From: Chrysomallon squamiferum
Lineage: Eukaryota > Animalia > Mollusca
Length of the DNA stretch: 64,000 bases
Reading direction: 5' to 3'
NCBI GenBank assembly: GCA_012295275.1
Contig: CM022677.1
Span: 13,206,001-13,270,000 of the forward strand
Positions 19,869-41,885 of the stretch are shown here, in pieces (position 1 is the first letter of the stretch; every line of letters starts with the position of its first letter). Made by a program: the position numbers and the translations under genes. The notes under the pieces are model-generated. The model ran no database searches and was not told the DNA's origin. It saw only the letters and a program-made list of their open reading frames with translations.

Positions 19869-20234
19869 ATGTTCACAGCTTTGGGTATAATTGCTACTGA
19901 AATCATTGAATTTGTGTTTGATACATCAGTGGAACTTGCTACATCAGCTATTATAGATTCTACCGCTCCAGCTATAGCCTAAATTGTTGGAGCTGATAGT
20001 GTATATCTACCTGAAGCGACTGCTATCGGACAAAGTATAGTTGAATCTTCTGTAGAAGGCACTGCTAGCTATACTAAAACTCAAATAAAGGACGCTTTGG
20101 ATCAATTCACTGATTTTGTGAATTCAAAAGATACAGCAGTAGATAATAACGTTTCATCTGAAGAACGAGATGAATTGGAAACTGAAGAGGACGAATACGT
20201 ATCATATATGCGTACTACTAGTCCAATTTCATGA
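19869..20234 (+). pseudogene. Unit 1 ORF1 (121 aa acidic protein), premature stop
   Basis: MFTALGIIATEIIEFVFD... homologous to 25410 and 36772 ORFs; TAA at ~19980. Confidence 0.85.
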
Positions 20235-22204
20235 ATAAAGGGAAACGTATATTAAACAAGAAAGACGTTACCAGACTTTTGGCTATAGCTAAAGCTAAAG
20301 CATTTGATATATTATCAGAGATAAATGTGCCGGTGGATCAGCGCCAAAACAGGTGGTTACAAATTCGACGTCAATATCCAAATTTACAGATTCCAAATCA
20401 AGATTTCTATTCGGCAATACAAAATATTCGGAACGAATATAACCATATTGAAGATCAAGACAAAGAGGACCCTTTTAATACGCCTATATATCCAGAAGAT
20501 GAACAAGCATTAAAAGCATCAGAACAACAAGGCATGAAACGACAAAACATCGAACCTGGAGGAGAATCTAGCTCCAAAGTTCCTAATAATAATCAACTAT
20601 CACAAGATATATTCCAAAGGAACGTATCTTCAACCTCAAGAGTCCGTAATGGAACCTGATTCTATCATGAACGAAGAGGTAACTGATACGTCTGGAGTTA
20701 ATCCGAGGTATATTACCATTAAAAAAAACATTTAAACGAACATTCACTAGTGAGATTAATTTCTCTAAGCAAAGAAAAGCTACTATGTCAATTATAGATA
20801 ATGCAACAGATGCTTCAGCATGGAAAAATGCAATAGGTGATCCAAATGTGTGAATTTACATTCAATCATGGTGGTCACATTATACCTTATTGGTATAAAG
20901 CAGCTAGCACGAAGGCAGACGATTGGAATTTACCTGATGAGGTTGTAGGCTATAAAATTAAAAAATTCGGATTTAATATAAATAATATGATAATACATGT
21001 TTTAAATAATACTAAATCAGATCCAAATGAAGTACCAGTAATGGCACCTCCAAATGCACGAGTTTGGACATTTACATATATTTACAATGATTATGGATTA
21101 CCTGATAAACATTTGGACCTATCTCATAATAATCGATTCAAAGATGAAGAATGTATGGACAACACATCTCAAAGAAGCATACCGGTTCAACCAGATCATA
21201 AATTATATTTGCCTAGTGACATAGGTATGCAACTGTTAAACAGTGCTTGGAACGGTGAGGGTGCGACTTATACTGCCGAAACACCTAATTACATATACGA
21301 TATGAAAAAACACGATGGATATAGAGAAACAGTTATTAGTGCAGGTGGTTTCGGTTTGGATTATACATGTAAAGATTCACCTTTAGTTATATTTCCAGGA
21401 GAAACAAGTCATACATTAAACTTTACTCAAATTACTGGTATGGGTTAAGAACGATAGATATCAGTTAGCAACGAAAACAAAGCTAACTTAGAATGGCCTA
21501 CGAGTAACAGTAATGACACTTCTAAACATCCATTAGGGACTGCTATCACTACCTATTTTAACCATCAATACAGAAATGTACACTATTCAGCTTGTTATCA
21601 AAATAAAGCTGGTAAAGATTTAGGAGCACCATCGATGGCAGATGATGCTAGCACCAAACTAGGTAAAAGCAGTATATCTAGCAATGATTTAGATAATCCA
21701 AATGTGAACACGTGCATGGACGGTAAACACCGACGCACTTATCAATGCAATAGACCTCCTATGTTCCTAATAGGTTTATACCCTGATGTAGAGAAAACTA
21801 GCAACGGAGCTACATTATTATTTAATTACCATGCTAACATACAAATAACTTATTATAGCGAGGTTGAGTTTTTAGTCAGAACGGCCATGTGTCCAAAATA
21901 CATACCTATAGGTTTGGGTGGATGTCCGTCAGGTAATATGGCAGGACTCATTTTTAAATTGAACGATACTACACCTGTAGGAAATAAAGACAATGTGAAA
22001 CATACAGAACAAGATCAATTCTTAGATGAAACTGTAAAACAATATAAAGATCGAATCGAAAAAACATGGAAAATGAGAATATATGCCCCTATATGGAAAA
22101 ATTGGAATAAACGTAAAGCCAGACGACGATTTATCTGGCCAGTACACGGTGCTTATGGAGATAGAAGTGTACCTATTACAGGAGATTGGTCTTATCCAGT
22201 ATAA
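20231..22204 (+). pseudogene. Unit 1 putative capsid gene, disrupted
   Basis: ORF fragments 20231, 20837 and 21635 align to the 707 aa protein; deletions, frameshifts and a stop at 21446-21448. Confidence 0.85.
20325..20513 (+). CDS. Unit 1 overprinted small ORF in capsid N-terminus (62 aa)
   Basis: Homologous to 31773 and 37228 ORFs (GYKFDVNIQIYRFQIKISIRQYKIFG). Confidence 0.5.
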   Translation: MCRWISAKTGGYKFDVNIQIYRFQIKISIRQYKIFGTNITILKIKTKRTLLIRLYIQKMNKH

Positions 22205-22288
22205 AAACAAAAATAAATAAATGAAAATACTTTCTCATAGTTGCGTAAGAATACAGTTAAAAGTCTTTGTTAATATTTACGTTCATTT

Positions 22289-22350
22289 AGTCACGTAACA
22301 TTTATTACGTCATGTTTGTGACGTCATGTTCATAACGTTATAAATAAAAG
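22289..22350 (+). promoter_or_regulatory. Unit 1 internal NS1 promoter (ACGT/CRE cluster + TATA)
   Basis: gtcacgt, ttacgtca, tgacgtca, then tataaataaa; conserved in all five units. Confidence 0.65.
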
Positions 22351-22454
22351 ATCGTTCAGCGAAAAAATTACTCATTTGTTTGTTATCTGTTACATGAAAT
22401 TGAATGTTTTAAACAAACATATAAATTTAATTTTGATTGTCATCAGGATTAATA

Positions 22455-24248
22455 ATGGATAGATATGTTGAAACCGTTGGAGATAGTTATTATAGTGTGG
22501 TTATAGGACACACCAGTTACAACATGGTACACCCGAAATTTTTGGTACCCAGATCTCTAGCTAAAGACAAAGAAGGTAAATACGTTTACGCACCAGGCAA
22601 GAATTATATTAAAAGCTACCAGATGGATCAGCAAGACATATTAGACAAGACTTTGGATCATTGGGCCACGCCCAATTATGAATATCTGGCAAAAGGACAG
22701 GACAGAGTCGTGACAGAATTGAAATCCTTTATACGAAACAAGAACTGGAAGATACTATTAGTATATCATCAAAAAGATTGTCAAGTAGAAAGTAATTATC
22801 CTACTTATGGTTCTCACGTTCACATTATATGGAAAACTAACATGAAGACCCCATCACAAGATAGACAATACAGACGACTCCATCGTGCAATTTTAAATGA
22901 AAATGGATACATCAAGATTCGTAAATTGAAGGATCCACAATGTACATCTGTAGAAAACTACATGATGTATTTGATGAACGATTCGGAGATGATGTATTTA
23001 GGAACAAATGACGAAAAGATGCTACACATTTGGAACGAAACAGAAAAATGTTCCAAAGAGGAGGAAGAAGACTTAATGAACGTTCTGTTAGATTTTTTTG
23101 ACGATCAACCAATAAAAGATAACAGTACAATTATTTCCGATATCAAAGTGCCTGTGAGAAAGGAAGACGTCAATTCCAATAAGAGTGCAACATCATCTCC
23201 TGTCGTGAATCACGGCAAAAGAACATCTTCCGCAGCAGCTAAGATGGAGGAAGTGATGTTAGAAACTATACCTGAAGACGAAAACAGGATCAACTAGTTC
23301 CATCTCATCTGATAACGAACAAATCAGCTGATACATTTGACTTCTTTTATAAACTAATAGTTAAACATCCAGACGTGAACAAACTGAATTTGTTAATCAG
23401 CAAATATGACAGTAACAGTAACGAGTTTAAAGCTATATGTAATGCAGTAGCTAACAAATCAGGAGAAAAGCTATTCAAGGCTGCTAGATCGAAATACATG
23501 GAAGAGGAAGCAGACAAGAACGCATACGACCAGATTCTGTCATTATCGGAAAACATCGATAATTACATGACACCAGATGACAGTTTAAACCTACTGTCGA
23601 GCTAATCTATGCATGATCAACTCTAACAACCCGTTTGGAGACGGACTCACCTCTAGTCAGATCAGTATAATGAAAACCCGACTCTATTTTCTACAGGATT
23701 TAAAGAAAAGTGATACATTGAAGCAAGCCTATAATCTGATACATCCAGGATTATTCAAAATCGGTTTCAAACCTACAGAGGACGAAATGATGATAGCTTT
23801 GGAAAATGACAGGGAATATTTTAGACTAAAACATAATAGCAATATAAATGACAATACAGTCGACGGCAGGAATAGTTATTTCAGAGATAACTTTGATGAC
23901 AGTCAGACAGTCAGCGAGCCTACAACACATATACTTTGCAATTCATCACCTAACAAAAGAAAATATATCGAGATATCGTCAGACGATGACGAACCAGAAC
24001 AGGAAAATAATTATTGTGCTTCGCAGGATCTCTTCATACAGAGTCAGAAACGATTCAAAGGTGAATCTGATGAAAACAAAGGTAGTAAACGTAAATTAGA
24101 AGAAGAGGATGAACTGGTGTCTCCCACACCGCCTTCAAATAACAAAACATTAAAGATCTACATACCGGAATCTCAACCGTTCTACGACGACTTCACAGAA
24201 ACAATTCAAGAGACACAAATAGACATATTTAAACGTTATAAACAATAA
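22455..24248 (+). pseudogene. NS1: Unit 1 NS1, frameshifted and lacking the helicase core
   Basis: HUH motif GSHVHIIW present; frameshift ~23295; at ~23592 the sequence jumps from DDSLN to YCRANLCMINSNN, deleting Walker A and B. Confidence 0.85.
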
Positions 24249-24540
24249 AAATAAACATTAAAAGACATCAGTGCTGATTTATTGTTGTTACGTTGATATT
24301 AATGTTCACTAAAAGTTATTTCTTGAAATAAAATTATTTATTAAAATTAATTACCTTCGTTTAGTTAATTATTTAAATATAACGGAAATGACGTCATATA
24401 AAATAACGTCATTTAAAAAAACGGATATGACGTCATATCCGTTTAAATGATATACTCTTCAAAATAAAAAATAGGGGGGGGGTGTGAAAATGCAAGATAT
24501 GATAGATTATCAACTCTACTCTTGTTATTGTAAAAAAAAC

Positions 24541-24713
24541 AAAGTTCCTCACTACATGGCTTTTTAGCTTTTTGGCTTTTTGACCATAATGTACTTTTAA
24601 CATATGATCCTTCGGGTTCTGGCTACGCCCGAAGGAACGTTATCACCTTCGGGCTAAAAGTACATTATGGTCAAAAAGCCAAAAGGCTAAAAAGCCAGAT
24701 CATGAGGAACTTT
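24541..24713. repeat. Terminal hairpin, apex type A, orientation 1
   Basis: Arms tggctttttagctttttggctttttgaccataatgtactttta / taaaagtacattatggtcaaaaagccaaaaggctaaaaagcca around a GC-rich apex. Confidence 0.9.
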
Positions 24714-24727
24714 GCAATTTCAACCTA

Positions 24728-24969
24728 ACTCTTGTTATTGTAAAAAAAAAAAAAAAAGTTCACGTGGAGTGATCAATGAGATCTGGGGTGAATTTTTAGC
24801 TTTTTGGCTTTTTGACCATAATGTACTTTTAGCCCGAAGGTGATAACGTTCCTTCGGGCGAAGCCAGAACCCTAAGGATCATATGTTAAAAGTACATTAT
24901 GGTCAAAAAGCCAAAAAGCTAAAAAGCCAGATCATGAGGAACTTTTTTTTTTTTACAATAACAAGAGTT
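24728..24969. repeat. Terminal hairpin, apex type A, orientation 2; followed by an orphan half-arm (~24970-25050)
   Basis: Same arms; apex gcccgaaggtgataacgttccttcgggcgaagccagaaccctaaggatcatatgt is the reverse complement (2 mismatches) of the previous apex. Confidence 0.9.
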
Positions 24970-25061
24970 TAAAAGTACATTATGGTCAAAAGCCAAAAAG
25001 TAATTTTAAAAAAAGCCAGATCATGAGGAACTTTGTTTTTACAATAACAAAGGTTGCCCGT

Positions 25062-25292
25062 AACTCAACTCTTGTGTAATTTTTAAAAAACAAAGTATAA
25101 CTGTAATCGATTTTTGGTTTTGCGGTCTTAAAAGCCAATGTGTACTTTTAGCCCGAAGGTGACTAGCTCCTTCGGGCGTAGCCCGAGCCCTACGGTCATA
25201 AGCTAAAAGTACACATTGGCTTTTAAGACCGCAAAACCAAAAATCGATTACAGTTATACTTTGTTTTTTAAAAATTACACAAGAGTTGAGTT
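25062..25292. repeat. Left ITR hairpin of unit 2 (91 bp stem, apex type B)
   Basis: 25062-25152 pairs with 25202-25292; apex contains the sub-hairpin gcccgaagg...ccttcgggc. Confidence 0.95.
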
Positions 25293-25318
25293 GGGATATA
25301 TCATCATCTAGCATTTCT

Positions 25319-25362
25319 CACGTGACATATTACGTCATATCCGGTAGATATTATATATAATA
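25319..25362 (+). promoter_or_regulatory. Left promoter (E-box CACGTG, TTACGTCA, TATA-like)
   Basis: cacgtg...tacgtcatatcc...tata recurs at ~31237-31290 and ~36686-36725, upstream of ORF1. Confidence 0.6.
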
Positions 25363-25409
25363 TTTGTATATTATAATTTAATCATTATATGATAATATGT
25401 CAAGATAGG

Positions 25410-25775
25410 ATGTTCACAGCATTGGGATTAATAGCAACAGAATTAATAGAATACGCATTCGATGCATCTGTGGAACTTGCCACATCCGCTATATTAGATT
25501 CGACTACACCAGCTATAACTGAAATAATAGGGGCTGATAGTATATTATTAGACCCTGCTATAAATATAGGAACATCTGTAGTTGAATCGGCTGTTGAAGG
25601 TATATCTGATTATACTAAAAATCAGATTGAACAAGCAATTAATGAACTAGGGAATTTCGTAAATACAGAAGGAAAAGATATAGATACCGACGTCACACCC
25701 AATGAACGTAATCAGATAGAGGCTGAAGAAGACGAAAACGTATCATATATATTTACGCGTATACCGGTTTCATGA
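25410..25775 (+). CDS. Unit 2 ORF1, 121 aa acidic protein of unknown function
   Basis: Intact; conserved in four units; stop overlaps the next start (ATGA). Confidence 0.85.
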   Translation: MFTALGLIATELIEYAFDASVELATSAILDSTTPAITEIIGADSILLDPAINIGTSVVESAVEGISDYTKNQIEQAINELGNFVNTEGKDIDTDVTPNERNQIEAEEDENVSYIFTRIPVS

Positions 25776-27895
25776 CAAAAGGCAAACGACTTTTGACGAA
25801 GACAGAGGTCACTCGTCTGTGGGCTATAGCAAAATCTAAAGCATTTAATAAATTAGCTGAACTAAATGTCCCCTATTCAAAACGACAAGAAAGGTGGCTT
25901 CAGATCAGACGTCAGTATCCAAATATACAAATTCTAAATAACGATTTCTATCAGGCAATTCAGAATATTGGGCAAGACTATAACTCTATTGAAGATTCGG
26001 ACGAAGACGACCCTTTCGGCACCCCTTTATTCTACGATAACGAAGAACAACAAGGAGATTTACACGACTCATCCAGACATCCAGATCAATCAGCTATGAA
26101 ACGACATTCAGCTGAACCATCTGGAGGACCAGATGCAAAGTTTAAAGATAATAAACAATTATCTAATAGAATTTCTCAAGATGTATTAGACAGATCTAAT
26201 GCTAAAGGAACATATTTACAACCTGAAGAATCTGTAATGGAACCGGATTCAATAATGAATGAAGAGGTTACAGATACTGATGGAAGTGAGGCAATTGAAG
26301 GTGCACCTATGGCATCGGCTACTGGTAATAATGTATTATACCAAGGTTTTGGTGGAACTACAAAAGTATTGGATCCTAGATACATTACAATTAAAAAGAC
26401 TTTTAAACGTACGTTTACTAGTACAATTAATTTTACAAAAGAACGAAAAGCAGAAATGAAAATATTAGATAACAATACAGATGATGTAAATTGGAAAAAA
26501 GCAATAGGAGATCCAAATGTTTGCGAGTTTAAATTTAATCATGGTGGACATATTATTCCATATTGGTATAAAGCTGCTAGTACTAAACCAGATGATTGGA
26601 ATTTACCAGATGATTTCATTGGTTATAAAGTTAAACGAATAGGCTTTAATATAAATAATATGATAATTCATGTGTTAAATAATAATAAAACAGATCCTAA
26701 TGAAGTTCCAGTTATGGCACCACCTACTTCACGAGTATGGACATTTACAGATATACATAATGATTACGGTTTACCTGAAAATAATTTAATGTTACATCAT
26801 AACCATTATTTTAGAGATGAAGAATGTATGGATAGTGTTGCTGAACGTAGCATAAAGGTACAACCAGATAGAAAATTATATATGCCTAGTGATATGGCTA
26901 TGCAATTATTAAATCATGCATGGACTGGTACAGACGGTATTAACTATAAAGCTGAATCTCCAAATTATATTTATGATATGAAAAAACATGATGGTTATCG
27001 TGAAACGGTCATTAGTGCAGGTGGTTTTGCATTAGATTATACTTGCAAAGATTCACCATTAATATTATTTCCATCTGAAACTTCACATACATTAAATTTT
27101 ACAGATGTTTCAGGGTTATGTCAAAAATCTAAATATCAATGTGCTAATGAAAACAAAGGTAATTTAGAGGTATGGCCTACACATGATATAATAATTACTG
27201 ACAATTCTAAACATCCAATGGGTACAGCTATATGTTGTTATTTTAATCATCAATATAGACGAATACATTATACAGCATGTTTTCAAAATAAAGCATCTAA
27301 TGTATTAGGTGCACCTTCAATGGTAGATGATGGAGGTACTAAATATAGTAACCAAGGTGTAATGCATAATAATGCGAATAATCCTAATGTTGATGTATGT
27401 AAAGATGGATCACATAGACGTACATATCAATGTAATAGACCTCCTATATTTATGATTGGATTATATCCAGATGTAGAAAAAACTAGTGGAGGAACTACAT
27501 TATATTTTAATTATCATGCAAATATTCAAATCACGTATTTTAGTGAAGTAGAATTTGTGGTTAGAACAGGTATGTGTCCTAAATATATTCCAATTGGATT
27601 GGGTGGATGTCCAGGTAATATGTTAGGACTAACATTCAAACAAAATGAATCTACACCAATGGGCAATAAAGATAACGTTAAACATACAGAACAAGATCAG
27701 TTTTTGGGTGAAACAGAAGCAAAATATAAAGAGAGAATACAAAAAACATGGAAAATGCGATGTTTTGCTCCTGTTTGGGATAATTGGAATAGACGTAGAA
27801 ATAGACGTAGACAATTATGGCCAATTCATGGTGCATATGGAGATAGAACAGTTGAAACAATGGCTAATGCAATGGATTGGTCATATCCAATATAA
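25772..27895 (+). CDS. Unit 2 putative capsid protein (707 aa)
   Basis: Intact; size, position in an ITR-bounded genome, disordered N-terminus and beta-rich core (FKRTFTSTINF, GGHIIPYW, KVKRIGFNINNMII) suggest a jelly-roll VP; no PLA2 motif seen. Function is inferred. Confidence 0.7.
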   Translation: MTKGKRLLTKTEVTRLWAIAKSKAFNKLAELNVPYSKRQERWLQIRRQYPNIQILNNDFYQAIQNIGQDYNSIEDSDEDDPFGTPLFYDNEEQQGDLHDSSRHPDQSAMKRHSAEPSGGPDAKFKDNKQLSNRISQDVLDRSNAKGTYLQPEESVMEPDSIMNEEVTDTDGSEAIEGAPMASATGNNVLYQGFGGTTKVLDPRYITIKKTFKRTFTSTINFTKERKAEMKILDNNTDDVNWKKAIGDPNVCEFKFNHGGHIIPYWYKAASTKPDDWNLPDDFIGYKVKRIGFNINNMIIHVLNNNKTDPNEVPVMAPPTSRVWTFTDIHNDYGLPENNLMLHHNHYFRDEECMDSVAERSIKVQPDRKLYMPSDMAMQLLNHAWTGTDGINYKAESPNYIYDMKKHDGYRETVISAGGFALDYTCKDSPLILFPSETSHTLNFTDVSGLCQKSKYQCANENKGNLEVWPTHDIIITDNSKHPMGTAICCYFNHQYRRIHYTACFQNKASNVLGAPSMVDDGGTKYSNQGVMHNNANNPNVDVCKDGSHRRTYQCNRPPIFMIGLYPDVEKTSGGTTLYFNYHANIQITYFSEVEFVVRTGMCPKYIPIGLGGCPGNMLGLTFKQNESTPMGNKDNVKHTEQDQFLGETEAKYKERIQKTWKMRCFAPVWDNWNRRRNRRRQLWPIHGAYGDRTVETMANAMDWSYPI

Positions 27896-27946
27896 TATGG
27901 CGTATGAATACAGTGATTAGTCTTTTATTAACGTTACGTTCAATTT

Positions 27947-28005
27947 GTCACGTATACCATATTACGTCATAATAATGACGTCATGTAAATAAGTGTATAA
28001 ATAAA
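27947..28005 (+). promoter_or_regulatory. Unit 2 internal NS1 promoter
   Basis: gtcacgt, ttacgtca, tgacgtca, tataaataaa (27996). Equivalents at ~33854-33912, ~39321-39378 and ~41744-41800. Confidence 0.65.
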
Positions 28006-28076
28006 GCAACGTTTGAAAAGTTGTCAGTTGTTACTCATCTTTTACTTAAGCACTTACCAGAAAAAAATTACAGATC

Positions 28077-30257
28077 ATGGATAGATTTGTTGATCTACCG
28101 GATCAGACCTTTTACAGTGTAGTAATTGGTCACCTTAACTACGACATGGTACATCCGAAGTATCTCGTACCAAGATGTCTGGCACGAGATAAGGATGGCA
28201 ATTTCATTTATGCCACTGGAAAACAATACATTAAATCGTATGAAATGGACTTACAGGATCTCTTAGATAAGGTGGTTGACCACTGGTCAACCCCCAATTA
28301 TGAAAATCTTCCTCGTGGCCAGGATCGTGTCATTAATGAATTTAAAGCCTTTTTAAGGAATAAATCCTGGAAAACATTGTTAGTATACCACCAAAAGGAT
28401 TGCCAGTCAAATGTTAACCATCCAACATACGGAACGCATTGCCATGTCATATGGAAAACATCTCTTAAAACACCATCTCAGGACAGGCAGTACAGGCGTC
28501 TACATAGAGCAGTATTAGGCGAAGGTGGATACATGGAGATCATGAAACTACGAGATCCACAAAAGTCTACCATAGAAGATTATATAAAATATTTGATGTC
28601 GGATGATGAAAAACAGTTCTTAGGAACGACAGACGAAGGATTGTTACAGATTTGGAATTCGATTGAAAAAGAGATAAACGAAAATGACACAGATATTCTA
28701 AACATTTTGAAAGATTTTTTCGATGATTCTGCAACAAGCAAATTGAATAAAAACACTAATTGCACGATTAGAAATCCAGTTAAGAAATATGACTCAAATG
28801 TTCAACCATCTACATCAGGATATAAACAAGATGGACTTACAGTAAATGAAGTCAAGAGAGATAACATTATAATACAATCAATGGATATTTCAGACAATGC
28901 TAAAACTATGGATTCAGATAAAATATCCATTCCATCACATCTGATAAATACAAAGTCATCCGATACGCTAGAGTTCTTTTATAACCTTATAAAACAATAT
29001 CCAGATGTGAATAAGTTAAATTTATTAATCAGTAAGTTTGAATCAGGCACAAATGAATTCAAAGCATGATGCAATGCAGTTGCAAATGCTTCTGGTGATA
29101 AACTGTTTAACGCAGCAAGATCTAAATATTTAGAAGAACAGGCAGAAAAAACAGCGTTCGAACAATTAAAATCACTTAACGACAAAATCGACCACTACAT
29201 GACCCCGGATGACAGTTTCAAAATGTTTAATTCGTGGTGCGTCGAACAAGAAATACCAGAACGATGGATGTACAGTTTAATTGTTGGATTATTAAAGGGT
29301 AAAGGAAAGAAAAAAATTGGCGTATATTTCCAGGGAGAATCCGACAGCGGAAAAACGATGCTGTCTAGCTCATTATTCGAATGTGTACCAACAGCAGGTA
29401 AAATTGCCAAGGACAATTTTCCTTGGCAAATGTTGGGCAATAAAAAAATAATTCTAGGTGAAGAAATATCCATAAATCAGAGCAACATCGATAAGTATAA
29501 GGACTTACTAAGTGGATCCAAGGCTACCTGTGAGCGGAAAGGCACGACTCCAGTATATTGTCGAGGTAATCTGTGCTTATTAAATTCCAACAACAAATTT
29601 GGGGATGGTTTAACGACATCACAAATTCGAATAATGAAAACTAGGTTATTTCTCATAGAGGGCTTGAAGAGAAGTAACATTCTCAAACAATCCTATGGAT
29701 TGTTGCATCCAAAACTATTCACGGTAGGTCGTGAACCTACAGATGACGAGATCAATTTAGCTCTTGAGAACGATAGAGAGTACTTTATTAACATTAACAA
29801 CATACATAATAATGACAATTCTTTCGAAGGAAGACTCAGTTACTACCACGATCATTTCGATCCTAGTCAAGATTGTAACGAAGATACTACTGAAACTAAT
29901 ATTAAGAAAGAACTGGTTATAAACACAGAACCTCAATACATTGTCATTTCCGATTCCGAAGATGATACTGTATATAATCCATCTCAAGACTTGTTCCGAC
30001 AGTCACAAAACAAAATGAACAATAACAGTCAACATGATAAAGGAATTAAACGAAAGTTCTACGAAGTAGATACAGAAGATGTATCTGATACAGAATCCAT
30101 AGATCCTCAGTACATCACAGTCGATCACGAACCAGAACATGATAGTCAAAAAAAATTTAAATTTTATATTCCACCGTCGCAACCATTTGAAGCAATGTTT
30201 TCTAACACGATTGAAGAAACACAAATGGATATTTTTGATAAATACAAGAGTGAATAA
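28077..30257 (+). pseudogene. NS1: Unit 2 NS1 with a single in-frame TGA (29067-29069)
   Basis: HUH GTHCHVIW, YIKY, Walker A GESDSGKT, Walker B ILGEE, motif C LLNSNN; ORFs 28077 and 29199 share a frame. Confidence 0.88.
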
Positions 30258-30587
30258 GTTATATAAACATTATAAACTATGTTAATTATTACAGTTATGT
30301 ATTGAAATGTTAATTATATTAAATAAAGGTTAATTAATATATATATATTAAATATTAAAATAAATATTTTAATAAAATATGTTGTTAAAATAGTAATAAA
30401 TGTTATTTGTGTATTATTATATAAAATGTTATGTTAATAATAAAATAAAAATGATTAATAAAACATTAATATTATTGTAAATAATAAACAATATTAATAA
30501 TTATATATATTGTTGTTATTTGTTTAATATAATATTATAAAAATATATTAATTTAACACGTGGTCAAAATTGGTATGATGATATACC

Positions 30588-30907
30588 CCAACTCAACTCT
30601 TGTGCATTTTTTAAAAAACAATGTATAACTTTCCTGGTTTTCTGGTTTTCTGGTCCTAAAAGCCAATGTGTACTTTTAGCCCGAAGGTGACTAGCTCCTT
30701 CGGGCGTAGCCCGAGCCCTACGGTCATAAGCTAAAAGCCAATATGTACTTTAATAGCAGCATAATAGCAGCTTATGGCGGCTATAGCCGCCCTATAGTAC
30801 CATAGTTACATGGCTAAAAGAACATATTGGATTTCAAGACCAGAAAGCCAAAAAGCCAGTCGAGTTATACTTTGTTTTTTCAAAAAATACACAAGAGTTG
30901 GGTTGGG
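30588..30907. repeat. Right ITR of unit 2: composite hairpin with apex B plus a second, different apex (type C)
   Basis: cccaactcaactcttgtg...apex B...then ggcggctatagccgcc-containing apex, and a diverged return arm ending cacaagagttgggttggg. Confidence 0.85.
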
Positions 30908-30986
30908 ATTGTTATTGTAAAAAAAACAAAGTATAACTAAGATTCGTTTTCAGCTTTCTTACACTTAAATCACGTGGTGTGAAAAA

Positions 30987-31227
30987 GGGGATGATGAGAT
31001 ATCCCAACTCAACTCTTGTGTAATTTTTAAAAAACTATGTATAACTTTTCTGGCTTTTTGGTTTTTTGGTCTTAAAAGCCAATATGTACTTTTAGCTTAT
31101 GACCATAGGGCTCGGGCTACGCCCGTAGGAGCTAGTCACCTTCGGGCTAAAACCAAAAAGCCAGAAAAGTTATACATAGTTTTTTAAAAATTACACAAGA
31201 GTTGAGTTGGGATATCTCATCATCCCC
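30987..31227. repeat. Left ITR hairpin of unit 3 (apex B, opposite orientation)
   Basis: ggggatgatgagatatcccaactcaac... / ...gttgagttgggatatctcatcatcccc; apex is the reverse complement of that at 25153-25201; ~30 bp missing from the right arm. Confidence 0.92.
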
Positions 31228-31329
31228 ATTTAATGACACGTGATATATTACGTCATATCCTGTATATTATAATATATATATATATAAATATTATAATATC
31301 TTCATTTGATATTATTTATTGCTTGTAGG

Positions 31330-31682
31330 ATGTTCACAGCATTGGGAATAATAGCTACCGAATTAATTGAGTACGCATTTGATGCATCTGTTGAACTTGC
31401 TACATCTGCTATATTAGACTCAACTGCACCAGCTATAACAGAAATAATAGGAGCTGATAGTATGCTATTAATATAGGAACATCCGTAGTTGAATCGGCTG
31501 TTGAAGGAATATCTGATTATACTAAAAATCAGATCGAACAAGCAATTAATGAATTAGGTGATTTTATAGAATCAGAGAGAAAGGATTTAGATACTGACGT
31601 CACACCTGCTGAACGTAATCAGTTAGAGGCTGAAGAGGACGACAACATATCATATATATATACCCGTACACCTCTTTCATGA
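31330..31682 (+). pseudogene. Unit 3 ORF1, frameshifted
   Basis: MFTALGIIATELIEYAFD...; short deletion at ~31463 (gatagtatgctattaat vs gatagtatattattagaccctgctataaat). Confidence 0.85.
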
Positions 31683-33802
31683 CAAAAGGCAAAAGACTTT
31701 TGACGAAGCCAGAGGTAACGCGTCTGTGGGCTATCGCAAAATCTAAAGCATTTAATAAATTAGCTGAACTAAATGTCCCCTATTCACAACGACAAGAAAG
31801 GTGGCTTCAGATCAGACGTCAGTATCCAAATATACAAATTCCGAATAACGATTTCTATCAGGCAATTCAAAATATTGGGCAAGACTATCACTCTATTGAA
31901 GATTCGGACGAAGACGACCCTTTCGGCACCCCTTTATTCTACGATAACGAAGAACAACAAGGAGATTTACACGACTCATCCAGACATCCATATCAATCAA
32001 CTATGAAACGACATTCATCTGAACCATCTGGAGGACCGGATGCAAAAGTTAGAGATAATAAACAATTATCTAACAAGGTTTCTCAAGATGTATTAGACAG
32101 ATCAAATGCTAAAGGAAAATATTTACAACCTGAAGAATCAGTGATGGAACCGGATTCAATAATGAATGAAGAAGTTACAGATACTGGTGGAAGTGAAGCA
32201 ATAGAAGGTGCACCTATGGCGTCCGCTACTGGTAATAATGTATTATACCAGGGTTTTGGTGGAACTACAAAAGTATTAGATCCTAGATACATTACGATTA
32301 AAAAGACATTTAAACGTACATTTACTAGTACAATTAATTTTACAAAAGATAGAAAAGCAGAAATGAAAATATTGGATAATAATACAGATGATGTTAATTG
32401 GAAGAAAGCCATAGGAGATCCCAATGTTTGCGAATTTAAATTTAATCATGGAGGACATATTATACCTTATTGGTATAAAGATGCCAGTACAACTCCAGAT
32501 GATTGGAATCTACCAGACGATTTTATTGGATACAAAGTAAAAAAGATAGGTTTCAATATAAATAATATGATCATTCATGTATTGAACAATAACAAAACAG
32601 ATCCTAACGAAGTTCCAGTTATGGCTCCACCTAATTCACGAGTTTGGACATTTACAGATATTAACAATGACTATGGATTACCAGAAAATAATTTAATGTT
32701 ACATCATAATCATTTCTTCAGAGATGAAGAATGTATGGACAGTGTAGAAGAACGTAGCATAAAAGTACAACCAGATAGAAAATTATACATGCCTAGTGAT
32801 ATGGCCATGCAATTATTAAATCATGCATGGACTGGTACAGATGGTATTAATTACAAAGCTGAATCTCCGAATTACATTTATAACATGAAGAAACACGACG
32901 GTTATCGTGAAACTGTTATAAGTGCAGGTGGTTTTGCATTAGATTACACTTGCAAAGATTCACCGTTAATATTATTTCCAACCGAAACGTCTCATACTTT
33001 AAACTTTACAGACGTTTCGGGTTTATGTCAGAAATCTAAATATCAATGTGCTAACGAAAACAAAGGCAATTTGGAGGTTTGGCCCACACATGATATAGTT
33101 ATTACTGATAATTCTAAACATCCCATGGGTACAGCTATATGTTGTTATTTTAATCATCAGTACAGAAAAATACATTATACAGCATGCTTTCAAAATAAAG
33201 CATCTAATGTATTAGGTGCACCGTCCATGGTAGATGATGGAGGTACTAAATACAGTAACGCAGGTGTAATGCATAACAATGCTAATAATCCTAACGTTGA
33301 TGCATGTAAAGATGGATCACACAGACGTACTTATCAATGTAATAGACCTCCAATATTTATGATAGGTTTATATCCAGATATAGAGAAAACTAGTGGAGGA
33401 ACTACATTATATTTCAATTATCATGCAAACATTCAAATCACCTATTATAGTGAAGTAGAATTTGTTGTTAGAACTGGGATGTGTCCAAAGTACATTCCCA
33501 TCGGATTAGGTGGATGTCCAGGTAATATGTTAGGATTAACTTACAAAGAAAAAGACGTTACACCAATGGGTAACAAAGATAATGTTAAACATACTGAACA
33601 AGATCAGTTTTTAGGTGAAACTGCTGAAAAGTATAAAGAAAGAATACAGAAAACATGGTTGATGCGTTGCAGAGCACCTATCTGGGATAACTGGAATAAA
33701 CGTAGAAATAGACGTAGACAGTTATGGCCAGTACATGGTGCTTATGGTGACAGAACAGTTGAAACCATGGGCAATTCAATGGATTGGTCATATCCAATAT
33801 AA
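31679..33802 (+). CDS. Unit 3 putative capsid protein (707 aa)
   Basis: Intact and colinear with the unit 2 protein. Confidence 0.7.
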   Translation: MTKGKRLLTKPEVTRLWAIAKSKAFNKLAELNVPYSQRQERWLQIRRQYPNIQIPNNDFYQAIQNIGQDYHSIEDSDEDDPFGTPLFYDNEEQQGDLHDSSRHPYQSTMKRHSSEPSGGPDAKVRDNKQLSNKVSQDVLDRSNAKGKYLQPEESVMEPDSIMNEEVTDTGGSEAIEGAPMASATGNNVLYQGFGGTTKVLDPRYITIKKTFKRTFTSTINFTKDRKAEMKILDNNTDDVNWKKAIGDPNVCEFKFNHGGHIIPYWYKDASTTPDDWNLPDDFIGYKVKKIGFNINNMIIHVLNNNKTDPNEVPVMAPPNSRVWTFTDINNDYGLPENNLMLHHNHFFRDEECMDSVEERSIKVQPDRKLYMPSDMAMQLLNHAWTGTDGINYKAESPNYIYNMKKHDGYRETVISAGGFALDYTCKDSPLILFPTETSHTLNFTDVSGLCQKSKYQCANENKGNLEVWPTHDIVITDNSKHPMGTAICCYFNHQYRKIHYTACFQNKASNVLGAPSMVDDGGTKYSNAGVMHNNANNPNVDACKDGSHRRTYQCNRPPIFMIGLYPDIEKTSGGTTLYFNYHANIQITYYSEVEFVVRTGMCPKYIPIGLGGCPGNMLGLTYKEKDVTPMGNKDNVKHTEQDQFLGETAEKYKERIQKTWLMRCRAPIWDNWNKRRNRRRQLWPVHGAYGDRTVETMGNSMDWSYPI
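31773..32006 (+). CDS. Unit 3 overprinted 77 aa basic ORF
   Basis: Alternate frame inside the VP N-terminus; same start offset and length as 37228..37461. Confidence 0.6.
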   Translation: MSPIHNDKKGGFRSDVSIQIYKFRITISIRQFKILGKTITLLKIRTKTTLSAPLYSTITKNNKEIYTTHPDIHINQL

Positions 33803-33983
33803 TAATGCGTATGAATACAGTGATTAGTCTTTTATTAACGTTACGTTAATTTTGTCACGTAAGCCATATTACGTCATACATATGACGTCATGTATATAAT
33901 GGTATAAATAAAGGAACGTTTTAAAAGTTGTCAGTTCTTACTCATCTTTGAATATAACTACATACGATAATATAAATACAGTG

Positions 33984-36161
33984 ATGGATAGATTTGTAGA
34001 TCTACCGGATCAGACATATTATAGCGTAGTAGTTGGTCATTTAAATTATGACATGGTACACCCTAAGTATCTCGTGCCCAGATGTCTTGCACGAGATAAA
34101 GATGGCAACTTCATCTACGCTACAGGAAAGCAATATATCAAATCCTATCAAATGGACGTACAAGATTTATTGGACAAAGTGGTTGACCATTGGTCAACGC
34201 CAAATTATGAGCAACTATCTCGTGGACAAGACAGAGTAATTAATGAACTGAAAGCCTTTTTGAGAAACAAGTCATGGAAAACACTTCTTGTATACCATCA
34301 AAAGGAATGTGAGTCTGTTGCAAATCATACCACTTATGGTACACACTGTCACATAGTTTGGAAGACAACACTTAAAACACCTTCACAGGATCGACAGTAC
34401 AGAAGACTTCACAGAGCGATTTTAACTGAAGGTGGATATATGGAAATAATGAAATTAAAAGATCCTCAGAAATCATCATTAGAACATTATATCAAGTACC
34501 TAATGAATGATGATGAAAAACAGTTCTTAGGAACAACTGATGAAGGAATGCTACAGACATGGAATGATATTGAGAAAGAATTAAATGAAAACGATAATGA
34601 TATAATGAACTTATTGAGAGATTTTTTTGATGAAGCACAGTCAACGAAACTTAATAAAAACATTATATCCAATATAAGAAATCCGGTGAAAAAACAGACC
34701 TCTAATGATGCACCATCAACATCCGGATATAACAAACATGGAATGACTGCAAATGATGTAAAACGAGAAGATGTGATCATACAAGCGATGGATACAACAG
34801 AAACTGTAAACCTTGATACAACTGATAAAATATCAATTCCGTCTCATTTAATCAACACTAAGTCATCGGATACACTTGAATTCTTCTACAAATTGATAAA
34901 GCAGTATCCAGATGTCAATAAGTTAAACCTACTTATCGGTAAATTTGAGTCAGGCAGCAATGAATTCAAAGCACTCTGTAACGCGGTAGCCAATTCATCA
35001 GGAGAAAAACTATTTAAGGCAGCTAGAACAAAATATACAGAAGAACAAGCAGATAAAACAGCTTTTGATCAATTAAAAACAATGAACGACAAAATAGACA
35101 ATTACATGAATCCGGACGATAGTTTTAAAATGTTTAATTCCTGGTGTAGAGAGCAGGAAATACCAGAGAGATGGCTTTACAGTTTGATAGTATCATTATT
35201 GAAAGGAAAGGGCAAGAAAAAAATAGGATTATATTTTCAAGGAGAATCTGACAGTGGAAAGACTATGGTTTCGAGTTCGTTGTTTGAATGTTTACCAACA
35301 GCAGGTAAAATTGCCAAGGATAATTTTCCTTGGCAAATGTTGGGAGGAAAGAAAATAATTCTTGGAGAAGAAATTTCGATTAATCAAACGAACATTGACA
35401 AATACAAAGATTTATTGAGTGGATCGAAAGCGACATGTGAGCGAAAAGGGACAACACCTGTATATTGCAGAGGTAACTTATGTTTATTGAACTCTAACAA
35501 CAAATTTGGCGATGGTCTGACAAGTTCCCAAATACGAATAATGAAAACGAGACTGTATTTGATTGAAGGTTTGAAACGAAGTAACATTCTTAAACAATGT
35601 TATGGACTTTTACATCCAAAGTTATTTGTAGTAGGACGTGAACCTTCAGATGATGAAATGAGTTTATCAATGGAAAATGACAGAGAATACTTCATTAATA
35701 TAAATAACATTCACAACAATGACAATTCGTTTGAAGGACGACTAAGCTATTATCACGATCATTTTGACAATAGCCAGGAAAGTACCCAAATAAATAATGA
35801 CAATATTAAAAGAGATTTAATTGAAAATACAGAACCGGAATACATAGTAATTCCTGATTCCGACGAAGAAAGTGTTTATAATCCGTCGCAGGATATGTTC
35901 ATACATAATCAGAATACATTAAAGCAAGAGAGTCAACATAATACAGGTGTAAAACGAAAACACTACGAAGTTGAGACAGAAGACATATCAGAGGATGATG
36001 AAGTGGATCCTAATTACATAACAATTGATAATGAACCAAATAATATCAGTGATAAACGATTTAAGTTTTACATTCCTCCAACGCAACCATTCGATGCGAT
36101 GTTTACAGATACCATTCAAGAAACCCAAATGGACATTTTCCACAAATATAAGAGTGAATAA
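33984..36161 (+). CDS. NS1: Unit 3 intact NS1/Rep (725 aa; HUH endonuclease + SF3 helicase)
   Basis: MDRFVDLP start shared with other units; GTHCHIVW, YIKY, GLYFQGESDSGKT, ILGEE, KDLLSG..CERKG, LLNSNN; acidic C-terminal tail. Confidence 0.92.
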   Translation: MDRFVDLPDQTYYSVVVGHLNYDMVHPKYLVPRCLARDKDGNFIYATGKQYIKSYQMDVQDLLDKVVDHWSTPNYEQLSRGQDRVINELKAFLRNKSWKTLLVYHQKECESVANHTTYGTHCHIVWKTTLKTPSQDRQYRRLHRAILTEGGYMEIMKLKDPQKSSLEHYIKYLMNDDEKQFLGTTDEGMLQTWNDIEKELNENDNDIMNLLRDFFDEAQSTKLNKNIISNIRNPVKKQTSNDAPSTSGYNKHGMTANDVKREDVIIQAMDTTETVNLDTTDKISIPSHLINTKSSDTLEFFYKLIKQYPDVNKLNLLIGKFESGSNEFKALCNAVANSSGEKLFKAARTKYTEEQADKTAFDQLKTMNDKIDNYMNPDDSFKMFNSWCREQEIPERWLYSLIVSLLKGKGKKKIGLYFQGESDSGKTMVSSSLFECLPTAGKIAKDNFPWQMLGGKKIILGEEISINQTNIDKYKDLLSGSKATCERKGTTPVYCRGNLCLLNSNNKFGDGLTSSQIRIMKTRLYLIEGLKRSNILKQCYGLLHPKLFVVGREPSDDEMSLSMENDREYFININNIHNNDNSFEGRLSYYHDHFDNSQESTQINNDNIKRDLIENTEPEYIVIPDSDEESVYNPSQDMFIHNQNTLKQESQHNTGVKRKHYEVETEDISEDDEVDPNYITIDNEPNNISDKRFKFYIPPTQPFDAMFTDTIQETQMDIFHKYKSE

Positions 36162-36423
36162 ATATATAAACATCATCAATATAGCATTAATATATTAAAA
36201 TATTGTTAACAGTTCAAAATGTTATATATTAAAATGTTGTATTATCATATTAATAAATATATTGTTAAACATATATAATCTTGTTATTATTTGTAATAAT
36301 ATTTGTATAATTGTTAATAATGTAATAAATAATAGTATAGTAATTAATAATATATAAATAAAATAAAAAATAAATAACATGTTATTAAATAATAAACACG
36401 TGGTTAAAATCGGATGATGAGAT

Positions 36424-36662
36424 ATCCCAACTCAACTCTTGTGTAATTTTTAAAAAACTATGTATAACTTTTCTGGCTTTTTGGTTTTTTGGTCTTAAAA
36501 GCCAATATGTACTTTTAGCTTATGACCATAGGGCTCGGGCTACGCCCGTAGGAGCTAGTCACCTTCGGGTTAAAAGTACATTTGGCTTTCAAGACCAAAA
36601 AACCAAAAAACCAGTCATGTTATACTATGTTTTATTTACAATAACAAGAGTTGGGTTGGGAT
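36424..36662. repeat. Single chimeric hairpin joining units 3 and 4
   Basis: Left arm and apex match the unit 3 left ITR; right arm is a diverged variant (tttacaataacaagagttgggttgggat); CACGTG on both flanks (36397, 36686). Confidence 0.9.
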
Positions 36663-36771
36663 TTATCAGGTCCCAAATTCATACCCACGTGTTATTATAC
36701 GTCATATCCGTTATAAATTATATAATTTATGTATATAATTCATTTATACTATAATTATTTGTTACGATAGC

Positions 36772-37137
36772 ATGTTCACTGCATTAGGAATAATTGCCAC
36801 AGAGATAATCGAATACGCATTCGATGCATCAGTAGAAGTTGCTACATCAGCAATAATAGAATCTACTATTCCTGCAATTACTGAAGTTATAGGAGCTGAT
36901 AGTGTGTTATTAGATCCTGCTATAAATATTGGACAATCTGTAGTAGAATCAGCTGTTGAAGGTATATCTACTTACACAAAAAACCAGATTCAAGAAGCTG
37001 TAAGAGAATTAAGTAACTTTAATAAATCAGAAGGAAAGGAAATAGATAATAACGTCACAACAAACGAACGTGACCAATTAGAAGAGGAGGAAGACGAAAA
37101 CGTTTCATATATATACAGCAATATACCGATTTCATGA
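36772..37137 (+). CDS. Unit 4 ORF1, 121 aa
   Basis: Intact homolog of 25410..25775; ATGA overlap with VP. Confidence 0.85.
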   Translation: MFTALGIIATEIIEYAFDASVEVATSAIIESTIPAITEVIGADSVLLDPAINIGQSVVESAVEGISTYTKNQIQEAVRELSNFNKSEGKEIDNNVTTNERDQLEEEEDENVSYIYSNIPIS

Positions 37138-39254
37138 CAAAAGGAAAAAGACTTTTGACCAAGAAAGAAGTCACACGGCTTTGGGCTATTGCGAAAACTA
37201 AAGCGTTTTCCATATTAGGAGATCTAAATGTCCCAAACGAAAAAAGGCAAGAAAAGTGGCTTCAGATCAGACGTCAGTATCCAAATATACAAATTCCAAA
37301 TAACGATCTCTATCAGGCAATTCAAAATTTTGGGCAAAACTATTACGCTGTTGCGGATTCGGACGAAGACGATCCTTTCGGGACCCCTTTATTCGACTAC
37401 GAATCTGAACAACGAACAGATATTCACGACACATCCGGAAATCAAGATAAATCAGTTATGAAAAGACATTCTGATGAGCCTTCGGGCGGTTCAAATGAAA
37501 AGGTACCAAACAATAATCAGTTATCTAGTACTGTATCTCAAGATGTATTGGATAGATCTAACTCTAAAGGTACTTATCTGCAACCTGAAGAATCTGTTAT
37601 GGACCCAGATTCCATAATGAATGAAGAAGTTACAGACACAGGAGGCAGCGAGGCAGTAGAAGGTGCTCCGATGGCATCTGCAACTGGTAACAATGTATTA
37701 TATCAAGGTTTTGGTGGAACTACCAGAGGAGTTGATCCACGATATATAACAATCAAAAAAACATTTAAAAGAACATTTACCAGTACTATTAATTTTACTA
37801 AAACTAGAAAAGCTGAAATGAAAGTGTTAGATAATAACACAGATGATGTTAATTGGAAAAAAGCTATAGGTGATCCTAATGTTTGTGAACTTACGTTCAA
37901 TCACGGAGGTCATATAATACCGTATTGGTACAAAGCAGCCAGCACTAAACCGGAGGATTGGAATTTACCAGACGATTTTATGGGATACAGAGTAAAAAGG
38001 ATAGGATTTAACATAAATAATATGATCATCCATGTACTTAATAACAATAAATCCGATCCCAACGAAGTTCCAGTTATGGCTCCACCTAATTCACGAGTTT
38101 GGACATTTACAGATGTAAACAATGATTATGGTTTACCAGAATTTTTTTTAAATCTGTCTCATAATCATTATTTTAGAGACGAAGAATGCATGGATAGTGT
38201 TAGTGACAGAAGTATACCTGTACAACCAGATCGTAAATTGTATTTACCTAGCGACATGGCTATGCAGTTATTAAATCATGCTTGGAAAGGAGACGGTATT
38301 TCATTTACAGCTGAATCACCAAATTACATTTACGATATGAAGAAACACGACGGTTATCGAGAAACTGTTATTAGTGCTGGTGGTTTTGCTTTGGACTATA
38401 CATGTAAGGATTCACCTACAGTTTTATTTCCATCAGAAGCATCTCATACCCTCAATTTCACTGATGTTTCTGGTTTATGCCAGAAAACTAAATATCAATG
38501 TTCTAATGAAAACAAAGGTAATTTGGAAGTATGGCCGACACAGGACATTGTAGTAACAAATACAACACAACATCCTATGGGTACAGCAATATGTTGTTAT
38601 TTCAATCATCAATATAGAAGAATTCATTATACAGCTTGTTTTCAAAACAAAGCATCAAATGTACTTGGTGCACCGTCCATGGTGGATGATGGCGGTACTA
38701 AGTTAAGTAATCAAGGTGTTATGCACAATAATGCAAACAATCCGAATATAGACGTATGTAAAGACGGATCACACAGACGTACTTACCAGTGCAACACACC
38801 GCCTATATTCTTGATAGGATTATATCCAGATATAGAGAAAACTAGTGGTGGAAATACACTGTTTTTCAATTATCATGCAAACATACAGATAACGTATTAC
38901 AGCGAGATAGAATTCGTTATTAGAACTGGAATGTGTCCAAAATACATTCCGATAGGATTGGGCGAATGTCCAGGTCCTATGCAAGAACTTACTTACAAGG
39001 CAGATGAATCGACGCCCATGGGTAACAAAGATAACGTGAAATACACGGAACAAGATCAGTTCCTAGGTGACACAGAATCTAAATATAAGGAGAGAATTCA
39101 GAAAACATGGAAAATGAGAACCACTGCTCCCGTTTGGGACAATTGGAACAAACGCAGAGCTAGACGTAGACAGTTATGGCCATTACACGGTGCTTATGGA
39201 GACAGAACGGTTGAAACCATGGGAAATTCTATTGATTGGTCATATCCTTTATAA
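37134..39254 (+). CDS. Unit 4 putative capsid protein (706 aa)
   Basis: Intact; more diverged from units 2 and 3 than they are from each other. Confidence 0.7.
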   Translation: MTKGKRLLTKKEVTRLWAIAKTKAFSILGDLNVPNEKRQEKWLQIRRQYPNIQIPNNDLYQAIQNFGQNYYAVADSDEDDPFGTPLFDYESEQRTDIHDTSGNQDKSVMKRHSDEPSGGSNEKVPNNNQLSSTVSQDVLDRSNSKGTYLQPEESVMDPDSIMNEEVTDTGGSEAVEGAPMASATGNNVLYQGFGGTTRGVDPRYITIKKTFKRTFTSTINFTKTRKAEMKVLDNNTDDVNWKKAIGDPNVCELTFNHGGHIIPYWYKAASTKPEDWNLPDDFMGYRVKRIGFNINNMIIHVLNNNKSDPNEVPVMAPPNSRVWTFTDVNNDYGLPEFFLNLSHNHYFRDEECMDSVSDRSIPVQPDRKLYLPSDMAMQLLNHAWKGDGISFTAESPNYIYDMKKHDGYRETVISAGGFALDYTCKDSPTVLFPSEASHTLNFTDVSGLCQKTKYQCSNENKGNLEVWPTQDIVVTNTTQHPMGTAICCYFNHQYRRIHYTACFQNKASNVLGAPSMVDDGGTKLSNQGVMHNNANNPNIDVCKDGSHRRTYQCNTPPIFLIGLYPDIEKTSGGNTLFFNYHANIQITYYSEIEFVIRTGMCPKYIPIGLGECPGPMQELTYKADESTPMGNKDNVKYTEQDQFLGDTESKYKERIQKTWKMRTTAPVWDNWNKRRARRRQLWPLHGAYGDRTVETMGNSIDWSYPL
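37228..37461 (+). CDS. Unit 4 overprinted 77 aa basic ORF
   Basis: GFRSDVSIQIYKFQITISIRQFKILGKTITLL nearly identical to the unit 3 version. Confidence 0.6.
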   Translation: MSQTKKGKKSGFRSDVSIQIYKFQITISIRQFKILGKTITLLRIRTKTILSGPLYSTTNLNNEQIFTTHPEIKINQL

Positions 39255-39450
39255 ATAGTATTAGTTAATTTATGCGTATGAATACAGTTAATAGTCTTTT
39301 TCAAATATTACGTTCAGTTTGTCACGTACATCATATGACGTCATGATTATTACGTCATATTATAACGTTATAAATAAAGAATGTTTGAAACGTCGTCATT
39401 CGTTAACGTTATCTGTTACACGAAAGATTATAATTGTATTTAGCTGTAAA

Positions 39451-40890
39451 ATGGATAGATTTGTAGATCTACCAGAGGAAAATTATTACAGTGTTTTGGT
39501 GGGCCATATCAACTATGATATGGTTCACCCGAAATACTTAGTTCCCCGCTGCTTGGCAAAAGACAAGGACGGAAAATTCGTATATGCAGCGGGAAAGAAT
39601 TACATCAAATCTTACCAGATGGACATTCAAGACATCATGGACAAACCGGTCGATCACTGGGCCACGCCCAGTTATGAATATTTGGCGAAGGGGCAAGATC
39701 GTGTCATCACTGAACTCAAAGCATTTGTAAGAAACAAAAATTGGAAAACACTTATGGTCTACCACCAAAAAGAATGCGAAGCCATTTCCAATCAACCAAC
39801 CTATGGCACTCATGTGTACATAATATGGAAGACCACTTTAAAAACACCATCTCAGGATAGGCAATACAGGCGTTTACACAGGGCAATCCTTAATGAAAAC
39901 GGATATTTAAAAATCATGACGCTGAAAGATCCACAGAAAATATCAGTCGAAAGTTATATGAAATATCTCATGAATGATATGGAGAAACAGTTCCTTGGGA
40001 CTAATGACGAAAAAATGCTTACCATGTGGAATGAAATTGAAAAGCAGATACATGATGATGATAAAGACATTCTTAACATATTAAATGATTTCTTCGATGC
40101 ATCAGGATCAAAGACGCTCGATAGTTCAATTATGACATCTAAAATAAGAGAGCCAATTCGTAAGGATGACGTCAATAAAAATAAAGATACATCAGTGAAG
40201 CCTACAATTACGGTGAAAAGCGGTATGTCAGTCAATGACATGAAATCAGAAAATAATTTGATTGAAGCAATGGATACATCAGACATCATAACTAAAGATG
40301 CAGATCAATCAGACAAGCCTGTTATTCCATCGCGTCTGATAAACAATAAGTCTGCAGAGACATTGGACTTCTTTTACAAACTTATTACACAATATCCTGA
40401 GATCAACAAACTTAATTTACTCATAAGTAAATTTGATTCGAATAGCAATGAATTCAAGGCATTGTGTAATGCTGTAGCTAATTCTTCTGGCGACAAGTTG
40501 TTCAAGGCGGCTCGTTCTAAATACATAGAAGAACAGTCAGATAAATCTGAATGACAATCTCGAACATTACATGACGCCAGAAGATAGTTTCAAGATTTTC
40601 AATTCATGGTGCAGAGAACAAGACATTGAGGAAAGGTGGTTGTTCAGTCTCATAGTATCACTGTTGAAGGGCAAAGGTAAAAAGAAAGTCGGGATGTATT
40701 TTCAGGGTGATTCAGACAGCGGCAAGACCATGATGACAAGTTCCATGTTTGAGTGCCTATCTACTTCTGGAAAGATTGCCAAGGATAATTTTCCTTGGCA
40801 AATGCCGGGTGGTAAAAAAGTCATACTGGGAGAGGAAATATCCATCACACAGACAAATATAGACAAATACAAAGATTTATTGAGCGGTAA
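39451..40890 (+). pseudogene. NS1: Unit 4 NS1, frameshifted and 3'-truncated
   Basis: HUH altered to THVY; short deletion/frameshift at ~40548; Walker A GDSDSGKT; ends at KDLLSG. Confidence 0.88.
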
Positions 40891-41670: not shown

Positions 41671-41885
41671 ATTACTATTTTAAAAGAAGTATTTGTTATT
41701 ACGTTGTGTAAGAATTTTGTGAAAGTCTGATATGTTATACATAACGTCACATGTCGTTACGTCATATCATTGACGTCATGTAAATAATGCTATAAATAAA
41801 GCTGACGTTCGAAAATATTTTTGTCGTTTGTCATTAATTGACTACTTAAACGTTAAAAAAAGTATATTTATAATCGAATAGAAAT

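Follow-up and report, generated by a model that had tools for sequence, protein, structure and literature searches.

A 64,000-nt stretch of the genome of the mollusc Chrysomallon squamiferum (GCA_012295275.1, contig CM022677.1, positions 13,206,001 to 13,270,000 of the forward strand; hereafter the window) carries at ca. 19.87 to 44.1 kb a head-to-tail array of five parvovirus-like units in a single orientation whose genes follow the sequence small ORF1, VP, and NS1 on the plus strand. We consider it likely that these are five different integrated parvovirus-like genomes, which read ORF1-capsid-NS1 along one strand and are flanked by terminal-type hairpins, and that their ancestors were free, linear ssDNA viruses belonging to a capsid-first lineage that is as yet unclassified. 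Compared with the literature that we found, the new elements are the capsid-first order with defined ends, the anchoring in an invertebrate host through endogenous copies, and the mixed-virus composition of the array.

Organization of the array and its surroundings

The units share a common plan of a 121-aa acidic ORF1, a VP of 706 to 707 aa, a spacer of 181 to 250 nt, an NS protein of ca. 725 aa, an AT-rich tail, and large hairpins. The stretch under study (25062..36662) corresponds to units 2 and 3, which measure ca. 5.85 kb (25062-30907) and 5.7 kb (30971-36691) with their full palindromes. A preliminary description of this DNA had proposed ITR-bounded genomes of ca. 5.7 to 5.9 kb with all ORFs on the same strand and the structural cassette upstream of NS1. 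The ORF coordinates of units 2 and 3, all on the plus strand, bear out this arrangement, and the proposed size and order also hold (5.7 to 5.85 kb), except that the array comprises five units rather than two.

None of the five units is intact, with units 1 and 5 degraded and the NS1 of unit 4 broken and truncated. Unit 1 (19869..24248, plus strand) retains a degraded ORF1, VP (20231-22204) and NS1 (22455-24248) in pieces, and the spacer between them, and it lacks a left hairpin. Unit 4 (36772..40894, plus strand) encodes a 121-aa ORF1, a 706-aa VP (37134-39254), and a broken NS1 that starts at 39451 and ends inside the helicase. Unit 5 (40895..44005, plus strand), the most divergent of all, consists of the 3’ part of VP, the spacer (41672-41885), and a degraded NS1 without a right hairpin. 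At window position 40890, the NS1 helicase of unit 4 is fused straight to the middle of the unit 5 VP with no hairpin in between, and this join is a deletion junction. The array begins at ORF1 and finishes past NS1. All of its genes lie on the plus strand, the longest open stretch on the minus strand being 120 aa, and no Rfam matches were found within 19-45 kb of the window.

In unit 2, ORF1 (25410..25775, plus strand) encodes a 121-aa acidic protein and its stop codon overlaps the start of VP (ATGA), an overlap seen in all four units that have ORF1; the unit 3 copy (31330..31682, plus strand) is frameshifted and spans 353 nt instead of 366. No family was found for ORF1, with a best Pfam E-value of 0.05 and an Atlas score of 0.80. 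Upstream of it in unit 2 lies a promoter-like element (25319..25409, plus strand) comprising CACGTG, ACGTCAT, and an AT-rich tract. The VP-NS1 spacers of units 2 (27896..28076) and 3 (33803..33983) on the plus strand are both 181 nt long; the former has CACGT..ACGTCAT, TGACGTCA, and TATAAATAAA (at 27996) without any hairpin, and the latter has TATAAATAAA at 33903. TATAAATAAA is located 81 to 116 nt upstream of the NS1 start in all five units, which are homologous so that these counts are not independent. Because this TATA-like box overlaps the sole AATAAA past the VP stop in four of the five units, it likely serves as promoter and poly(A) site combined. The CACGT..ACGTCAT motif occurs upstream of both ORF1 and NS1 (window positions 22292, 25319, 27949, 31237, 33856, 36686, and 39323). 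Such paired promoters suggest that one was duplicated from the other or that two cassettes were fused, which would be a possible route to the swapped gene order.

The array is embedded in AT-rich, microsatellite-rich animal DNA of ca. 30% GC. A degraded intronless gene at 10675-12627 of the window (plus strand) encodes RING, coiled-coil, and NHL-repeat parts and is TRIM-like, a type of gene that is expanded in molluscs and their relatives. Combined with the low GC content and the abundance of microsatellites, this gene suggests an invertebrate host of lophotrochozoan type. Directly to the left of unit 1, at the expected site of its left hairpin, we found a short open frame (19524-19862, plus strand) without a Pfam match that is reminiscent of RNase H in non-LTR retrotransposons. 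Two complex tandem repeat blocks with units of ca. 110 nt (60282-61341 and 61367-62819) lie near an N gap.

Capsid and replication proteins

The VP genes of units 2 (25772..27895) and 3 (31679..33802) on the plus strand both encode 707 aa, in unit 3 with a helical N-terminal domain (residues 7-70), a disordered linker, and a jelly-roll shell domain (ca. residues 190-690). While folding of the single sequence gave a pLDDT of 29, a model based on a 48-row alignment had a mean pLDDT of 65, and its beta core is confident. Compared structurally with 48,161 solved chains, this model has parvovirus capsids and nothing else at ranks 1 to 20 (Z 15.7-9.9, rmsd 3.9-7.0 over 232-304 residues; best match with Z 15.7 and rmsd 4.5 over 288 aligned residues), and the next match has a Z of 5.2, with circovirus and bacilladnavirus capsids at 4.8-5.2. 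Foldseek searches agree (E 6.5e-10 and 6.9e-15), as does an Atlas language-model search linking VP to parvoviral capsid clusters (score 0.95). The identity of VP to solved capsids is 6-14%; a Pfam search with VP returned no named capsid family, and PDB sequence searches with VP or VP profiles matched no capsid. The earlier assignment of the 707-aa protein as capsid, to be checked by structure prediction, has thus withstood this check, and by its modeled fold the protein is a parvovirus jelly-roll capsid. No PLA2 motif was found in the 707-aa VP, and weak PLA2 matches in the PDB profile search (E 0.25-0.5) were dismissed as chance.

NS1 of unit 2 (28077..30257, plus strand) is interrupted by an in-frame stop at 29067-29069, and NS1 of unit 3 (33984..36161, plus strand) encodes 725 aa. 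The latter carries an HUH motif (aa 121-126) and motif III (aa 169-173), followed by helicase motifs Walker A (420-427), B (458-463), B’ (475-488), and C (501-505). It matches Parvo_NS1 in Pfam (E 2.8e-8, 33.5 bits against a curated cut-off of 20), and its best sequence matches in the PDB are a parvoviral NS1 and Rep40/68. Homolog searches with NS1 returned four and three relatives. In the HUH region, H-C-H and Y-x-x-Y-L motifs follow each other as expected, with the HUH kept in relatives and without a profile or fold match. We read the 725-aa protein as an NS1 with an SF3 helicase and a putative HUH part assigned by its motifs.

A profile search with VP among 1.84 billion representatives detected 57 related clusters. 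Of 20 that were looked up, 18 come from Logan, one from JGI, and one is a GenBank protein labeled “Parvoviridae sp.”. For 13 out of 19 sized clusters, the contigs measure 5.8-7.5 kb, with an upper limit of 7,535 nt for all 19, which suggests free-looking relatives of the size expected for whole genomes of small viruses. Pfam capsid models recognized none of 30 scanned VP relatives. One of these 30 (P0056) has an N-terminal PLA2 domain fused to a VP-type capsid, a hint that ORF1 could replace the N-terminal function of a minor capsid protein. The close relatives P0001-P0024 (ca. 52-55% for VP and ca. 50% for NS1) are listed several per long contig, with eight members at 297,455 nt and seven at 60,905 nt, and this grouping suggests similar arrays in another host genome. 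No related loci were recovered from viral, metagenome, and genome contig collections. In a quick VP tree with long branches, which uses 34 of 48 rows after dropping 14 rows shorter than 480 aa, the VPs of the window group with the relative P0013 (support 100) but are not firmly placed.

Hairpins and genome ends

A tandem array by itself cannot fix where its unit starts, and we therefore probed the ends in four ways, i.e., by folding, by flip and flop tops, by arm identity, and by co-variation of VP and NS1. Five hairpin regions fold with z-scores of -13.6 to -24.4 (40 dinucleotide shuffles each) and occur only between the end of NS1 and the next ORF1, whereas the five VP-NS spacers score between -0.1 and -2.7 and have a longest self-inverted match of 10-14 nt compared to 16-91 nt in the hairpins. 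The hairpins are ca. 180 to 320 nt in size, and their tops comprise three in flip and three in flop orientation. Both orientations are expected from terminal resolution in parvoviruses.

Between units 1 and 2 (24513..25050), there are two hairpins of the unit 1 type, one flop and one flip, and a partial third. The left hairpin of unit 2 (25062..25292) has arms matching at 87/87 positions and a flip top, and its right hairpin (30557..30907) is a hybrid with a flip top, an insertion, and arms matching at 74/88. The left hairpin of unit 3 (30971..31242) is an extended palindrome with a flop top and outer arms on both sides. Units 3 and 4 have a single hybrid hairpin in common (36397..36691), the 5’ arm of which matches the left hairpin of unit 3 at 89/89 positions and its own 3’ arm at 71/85. 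Altogether, hybrid hairpins lie at two junctions, and two junctions have two or three hairpins. The inboard arms at the two ends of unit 3 are identical (60/60), with an exact repeat of 158 nt at left and right, and those of unit 2 match at just 76/88. No hairpins were found at the left or right outer end of the array, and no direct repeats of at least 9 nt are shared between the two outer flanks that were compared.

The VP and NS sequences of the same unit co-vary in their identities (r 0.94, a level attained in 2 of 120 permutations, one of them the true pairing), a value resting on ten pairwise identities that are not mutually independent, while an NS and the VP of the following unit do not (r -0.20). 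VP thus co-varies with the NS1 downstream of it and not with the one upstream, which argues for capsid-first unit boundaries at the hairpins. The preliminary description had placed hairpin ITRs between the 3’ end of NS1 and ORF1 and nothing but a promoter in the spacer. Folding, arm matches, and flip and flop tops confirm the former, and the promoter-like element in spacers devoid of hairpins agrees with the latter. Linear free genomes are what we infer from these integrated junctions, with the flip and flop tops as indirect support.

At the DNA level, the units diverge by 10-41%. Four comparisons of VP yield dN/dS ratios of 0.06-0.09, the value for ORF1 is 0.16, and each of five NS comparisons shows saturation at synonymous sites. 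Such purifying selection between units points to divergence as functioning genomes before integration, and from these comparisons we take the five units to be distinct viruses and not host duplicates. Units 2 and 3 are 90% alike in VP and 75% in NS1, and unit 2 may be a mosaic.

Relationship to known parvoviruses and origin of the array

Monosense genera of Parvoviridae have the NS cassette upstream of VP, and parvovirus genomes are usually presented as NS first or as ambisense. In the array, VP precedes NS1 between the hairpins, unlike in the monosense genera, and all genes are on the plus strand, unlike in ambisense densoviruses with NS and VP on opposite strands. The SF3 helicase of NS1, the jelly-roll capsid fold, and the unit of 5.7-5.85 kb between hairpins are those of Parvoviridae. 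CRESS-DNA viruses are characterized by a circular genome, a small stem-loop origin, and a CRESS-type Rep, and the helicase and capsid of the array match parvoviruses. Judged by capsid fold, helicase, and hairpins, the virus is a parvovirus and not a separate kind of ssDNA virus. The ICTV profile describes Parvoviridae as having linear ssDNA of 4-6 kb with hairpins of 120-600 nt, NS1, and VP (PMC6537627). The array units share the unit and hairpin sizes, the two cassettes, an NS1 with SF3 helicase and putative HUH part, a jelly-roll VP, and a small auxiliary ORF with this family but differ by carrying VP upstream of NS1 on the same strand and by a VP without PLA2 motif.

The closest precedent is a report on goose cloacal metagenomes that mentions two unclassified parvoviruses of 7.2-7.5 kb (MT138329 and MT138334) in which the structural ORF precedes the non-structural one (PMC9001828). 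They resemble the array units in this order but, as described there, exceed 7 kb and have a further large ORF, and the text on them consulted here describes no termini. A window VP and the GenBank protein QKE54994.1 share 26% identity over 453 columns, and according to later papers (PMC11598897, PMC11768072, PMC9695665), QKE54994.1 sits among the accessions of that study. It quite likely belongs to MT138329 or MT138334, with the accession order being ambiguous between MT138329 and a neighbor, and the array and the goose genomes are probably of the same broad lineage. We found no other printed statement of a capsid-first order and no established genus with it in a literature search that had most subscription journals and ICTV proposals outside its coverage. 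The swapped, unclassified lineage proposed in the preliminary description stands in part. The search brought up no established genus of this kind, but two such genomes had already appeared in PMC9001828, which partly counts against the proposal under the terms set there, and the lineage falls within the parvoviruses.

Among the unclassified viruses beyond the six subfamilies of Parvoviridae listed in PMC13426907, SwaBA-MePV-1-like megaparvoviruses are likewise likely homotelomeric, with extra 5’ cassettes and complete endogenous copies in invertebrates. As described there, they differ from the array units in that NS1 still precedes VP1 and that a 5’ ORF bears PLA2. The IHHNV elements in Penaeus monodon and arrays of integrated AAV likewise hold parvoviral DNA repeatedly at a single host locus and have their junctions in terminal repeats, though these are jumbled pieces of one virus and not distinct, near-whole genomes in one orientation (PMC8982415).

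Since a head-to-tail array alone leaves the unit start unfixed, canonical NS-VP genomes might terminate in the 181-nt spacer and hold the big hairpins internally, and the spacer of unit 5 folds at a z-score of -2.7. This reading is extremely improbable and largely refuted by the lack of long palindromes in the spacers, by the missing co-variation of an NS with the VP after it, and by unit 3 being framed by identical arms. The free form could also have been circular with one large palindromic origin, as a circular virus or a circularized episome, and the array would then stem from integrated circles, as might fit the one hairpin common to units 3 and 4 and the outer arms on both sides of the unit 3 left hairpin. 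We regard such circles as unlikely given that flip and flop tops are both present, that two junctions have two or three hairpins, and that the hairpin common to units 3 and 4 is a hybrid of two sequence types, besides a helicase matching Parvo_NS1 and a capsid far closer to parvoviruses than to circoviruses or bacilladnaviruses (Z 4.8-5.2). If true, a linear genome with swapped ends would be the wrong description, while VP and then NS1 would still follow the origin.

It is very unlikely that the swapped order was never viral and that it came about by host rearrangement and subsequent tandem duplication of a single ordinary NS-VP insertion. The single orientation of all units in tandem would suit this scenario, and jumbled parvovirus insertions are known in shrimp (PMC8982415), but DNA divergence between the units amounts to 10-41% under purifying selection, their spacer motifs and ATGA overlap are conserved, there are free-looking relatives, and two metagenomic genomes have been reported as capsid-first (PMC9001828). 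Palindromes are difficult to assemble, and free viruses could have been joined into a host scaffold at these sites. Such a chimera is highly improbable for an array without N gaps (the sole gap in the window is at 59679-59878) whose units bear stops and frameshifts and which has related multi-copy clusters on long contigs elsewhere, and even then the gene order within each unit would hold.

For the favored reading of integrated, capsid-first linear genomes, we envision that NS1 would nick and resolve the near-identical terminal hairpins in rolling-hairpin replication. ORF1 and VP, coupled through their ATGA overlap, would be transcribed from the promoter with CACGTG, ACGTCAT, and AT-rich tract that adjoins the left hairpin on its inner side, and NS1 from a second promoter of similar make-up in the spacer, the TATAAATAAA of which would also terminate VP transcripts. 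The array probably expanded when different genomes recombined end to end through their hairpins, whether ahead of integration or as new genomes repeatedly inserted at a hairpin already in place, and would then have decayed in the host germ line. More speculatively, and with considerable doubt, the capsid-first viruses could form a clade at subfamily level that is widespread in sequencing data, in which NS1 recognizes hairpins already in place, guiding one infecting genome after another to a single germ-line locus where ordered arrays build up, and in which one TATAAATAAA ends the capsid message and starts that of NS1.

The earlier mention of this gene order is one sentence on two hostless metagenomic genomes (PMC9001828). 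Through the endogenous copies, this VP family is tied to an invertebrate host, and its termini and promoters become defined, and 57 capsid clusters without a Pfam capsid match in any of 30 scanned relatives point to a sizeable unclassified group. With distinct genomes joined at hybrid hairpins, it becomes testable whether germ-line integration is targeted or mediated by hairpins. A lineage that has the capsid first and its ends defined would mean that the order of early and late cassettes is not fixed in parvoviruses, and it raises the question of how NS1 is made first from an internal promoter.
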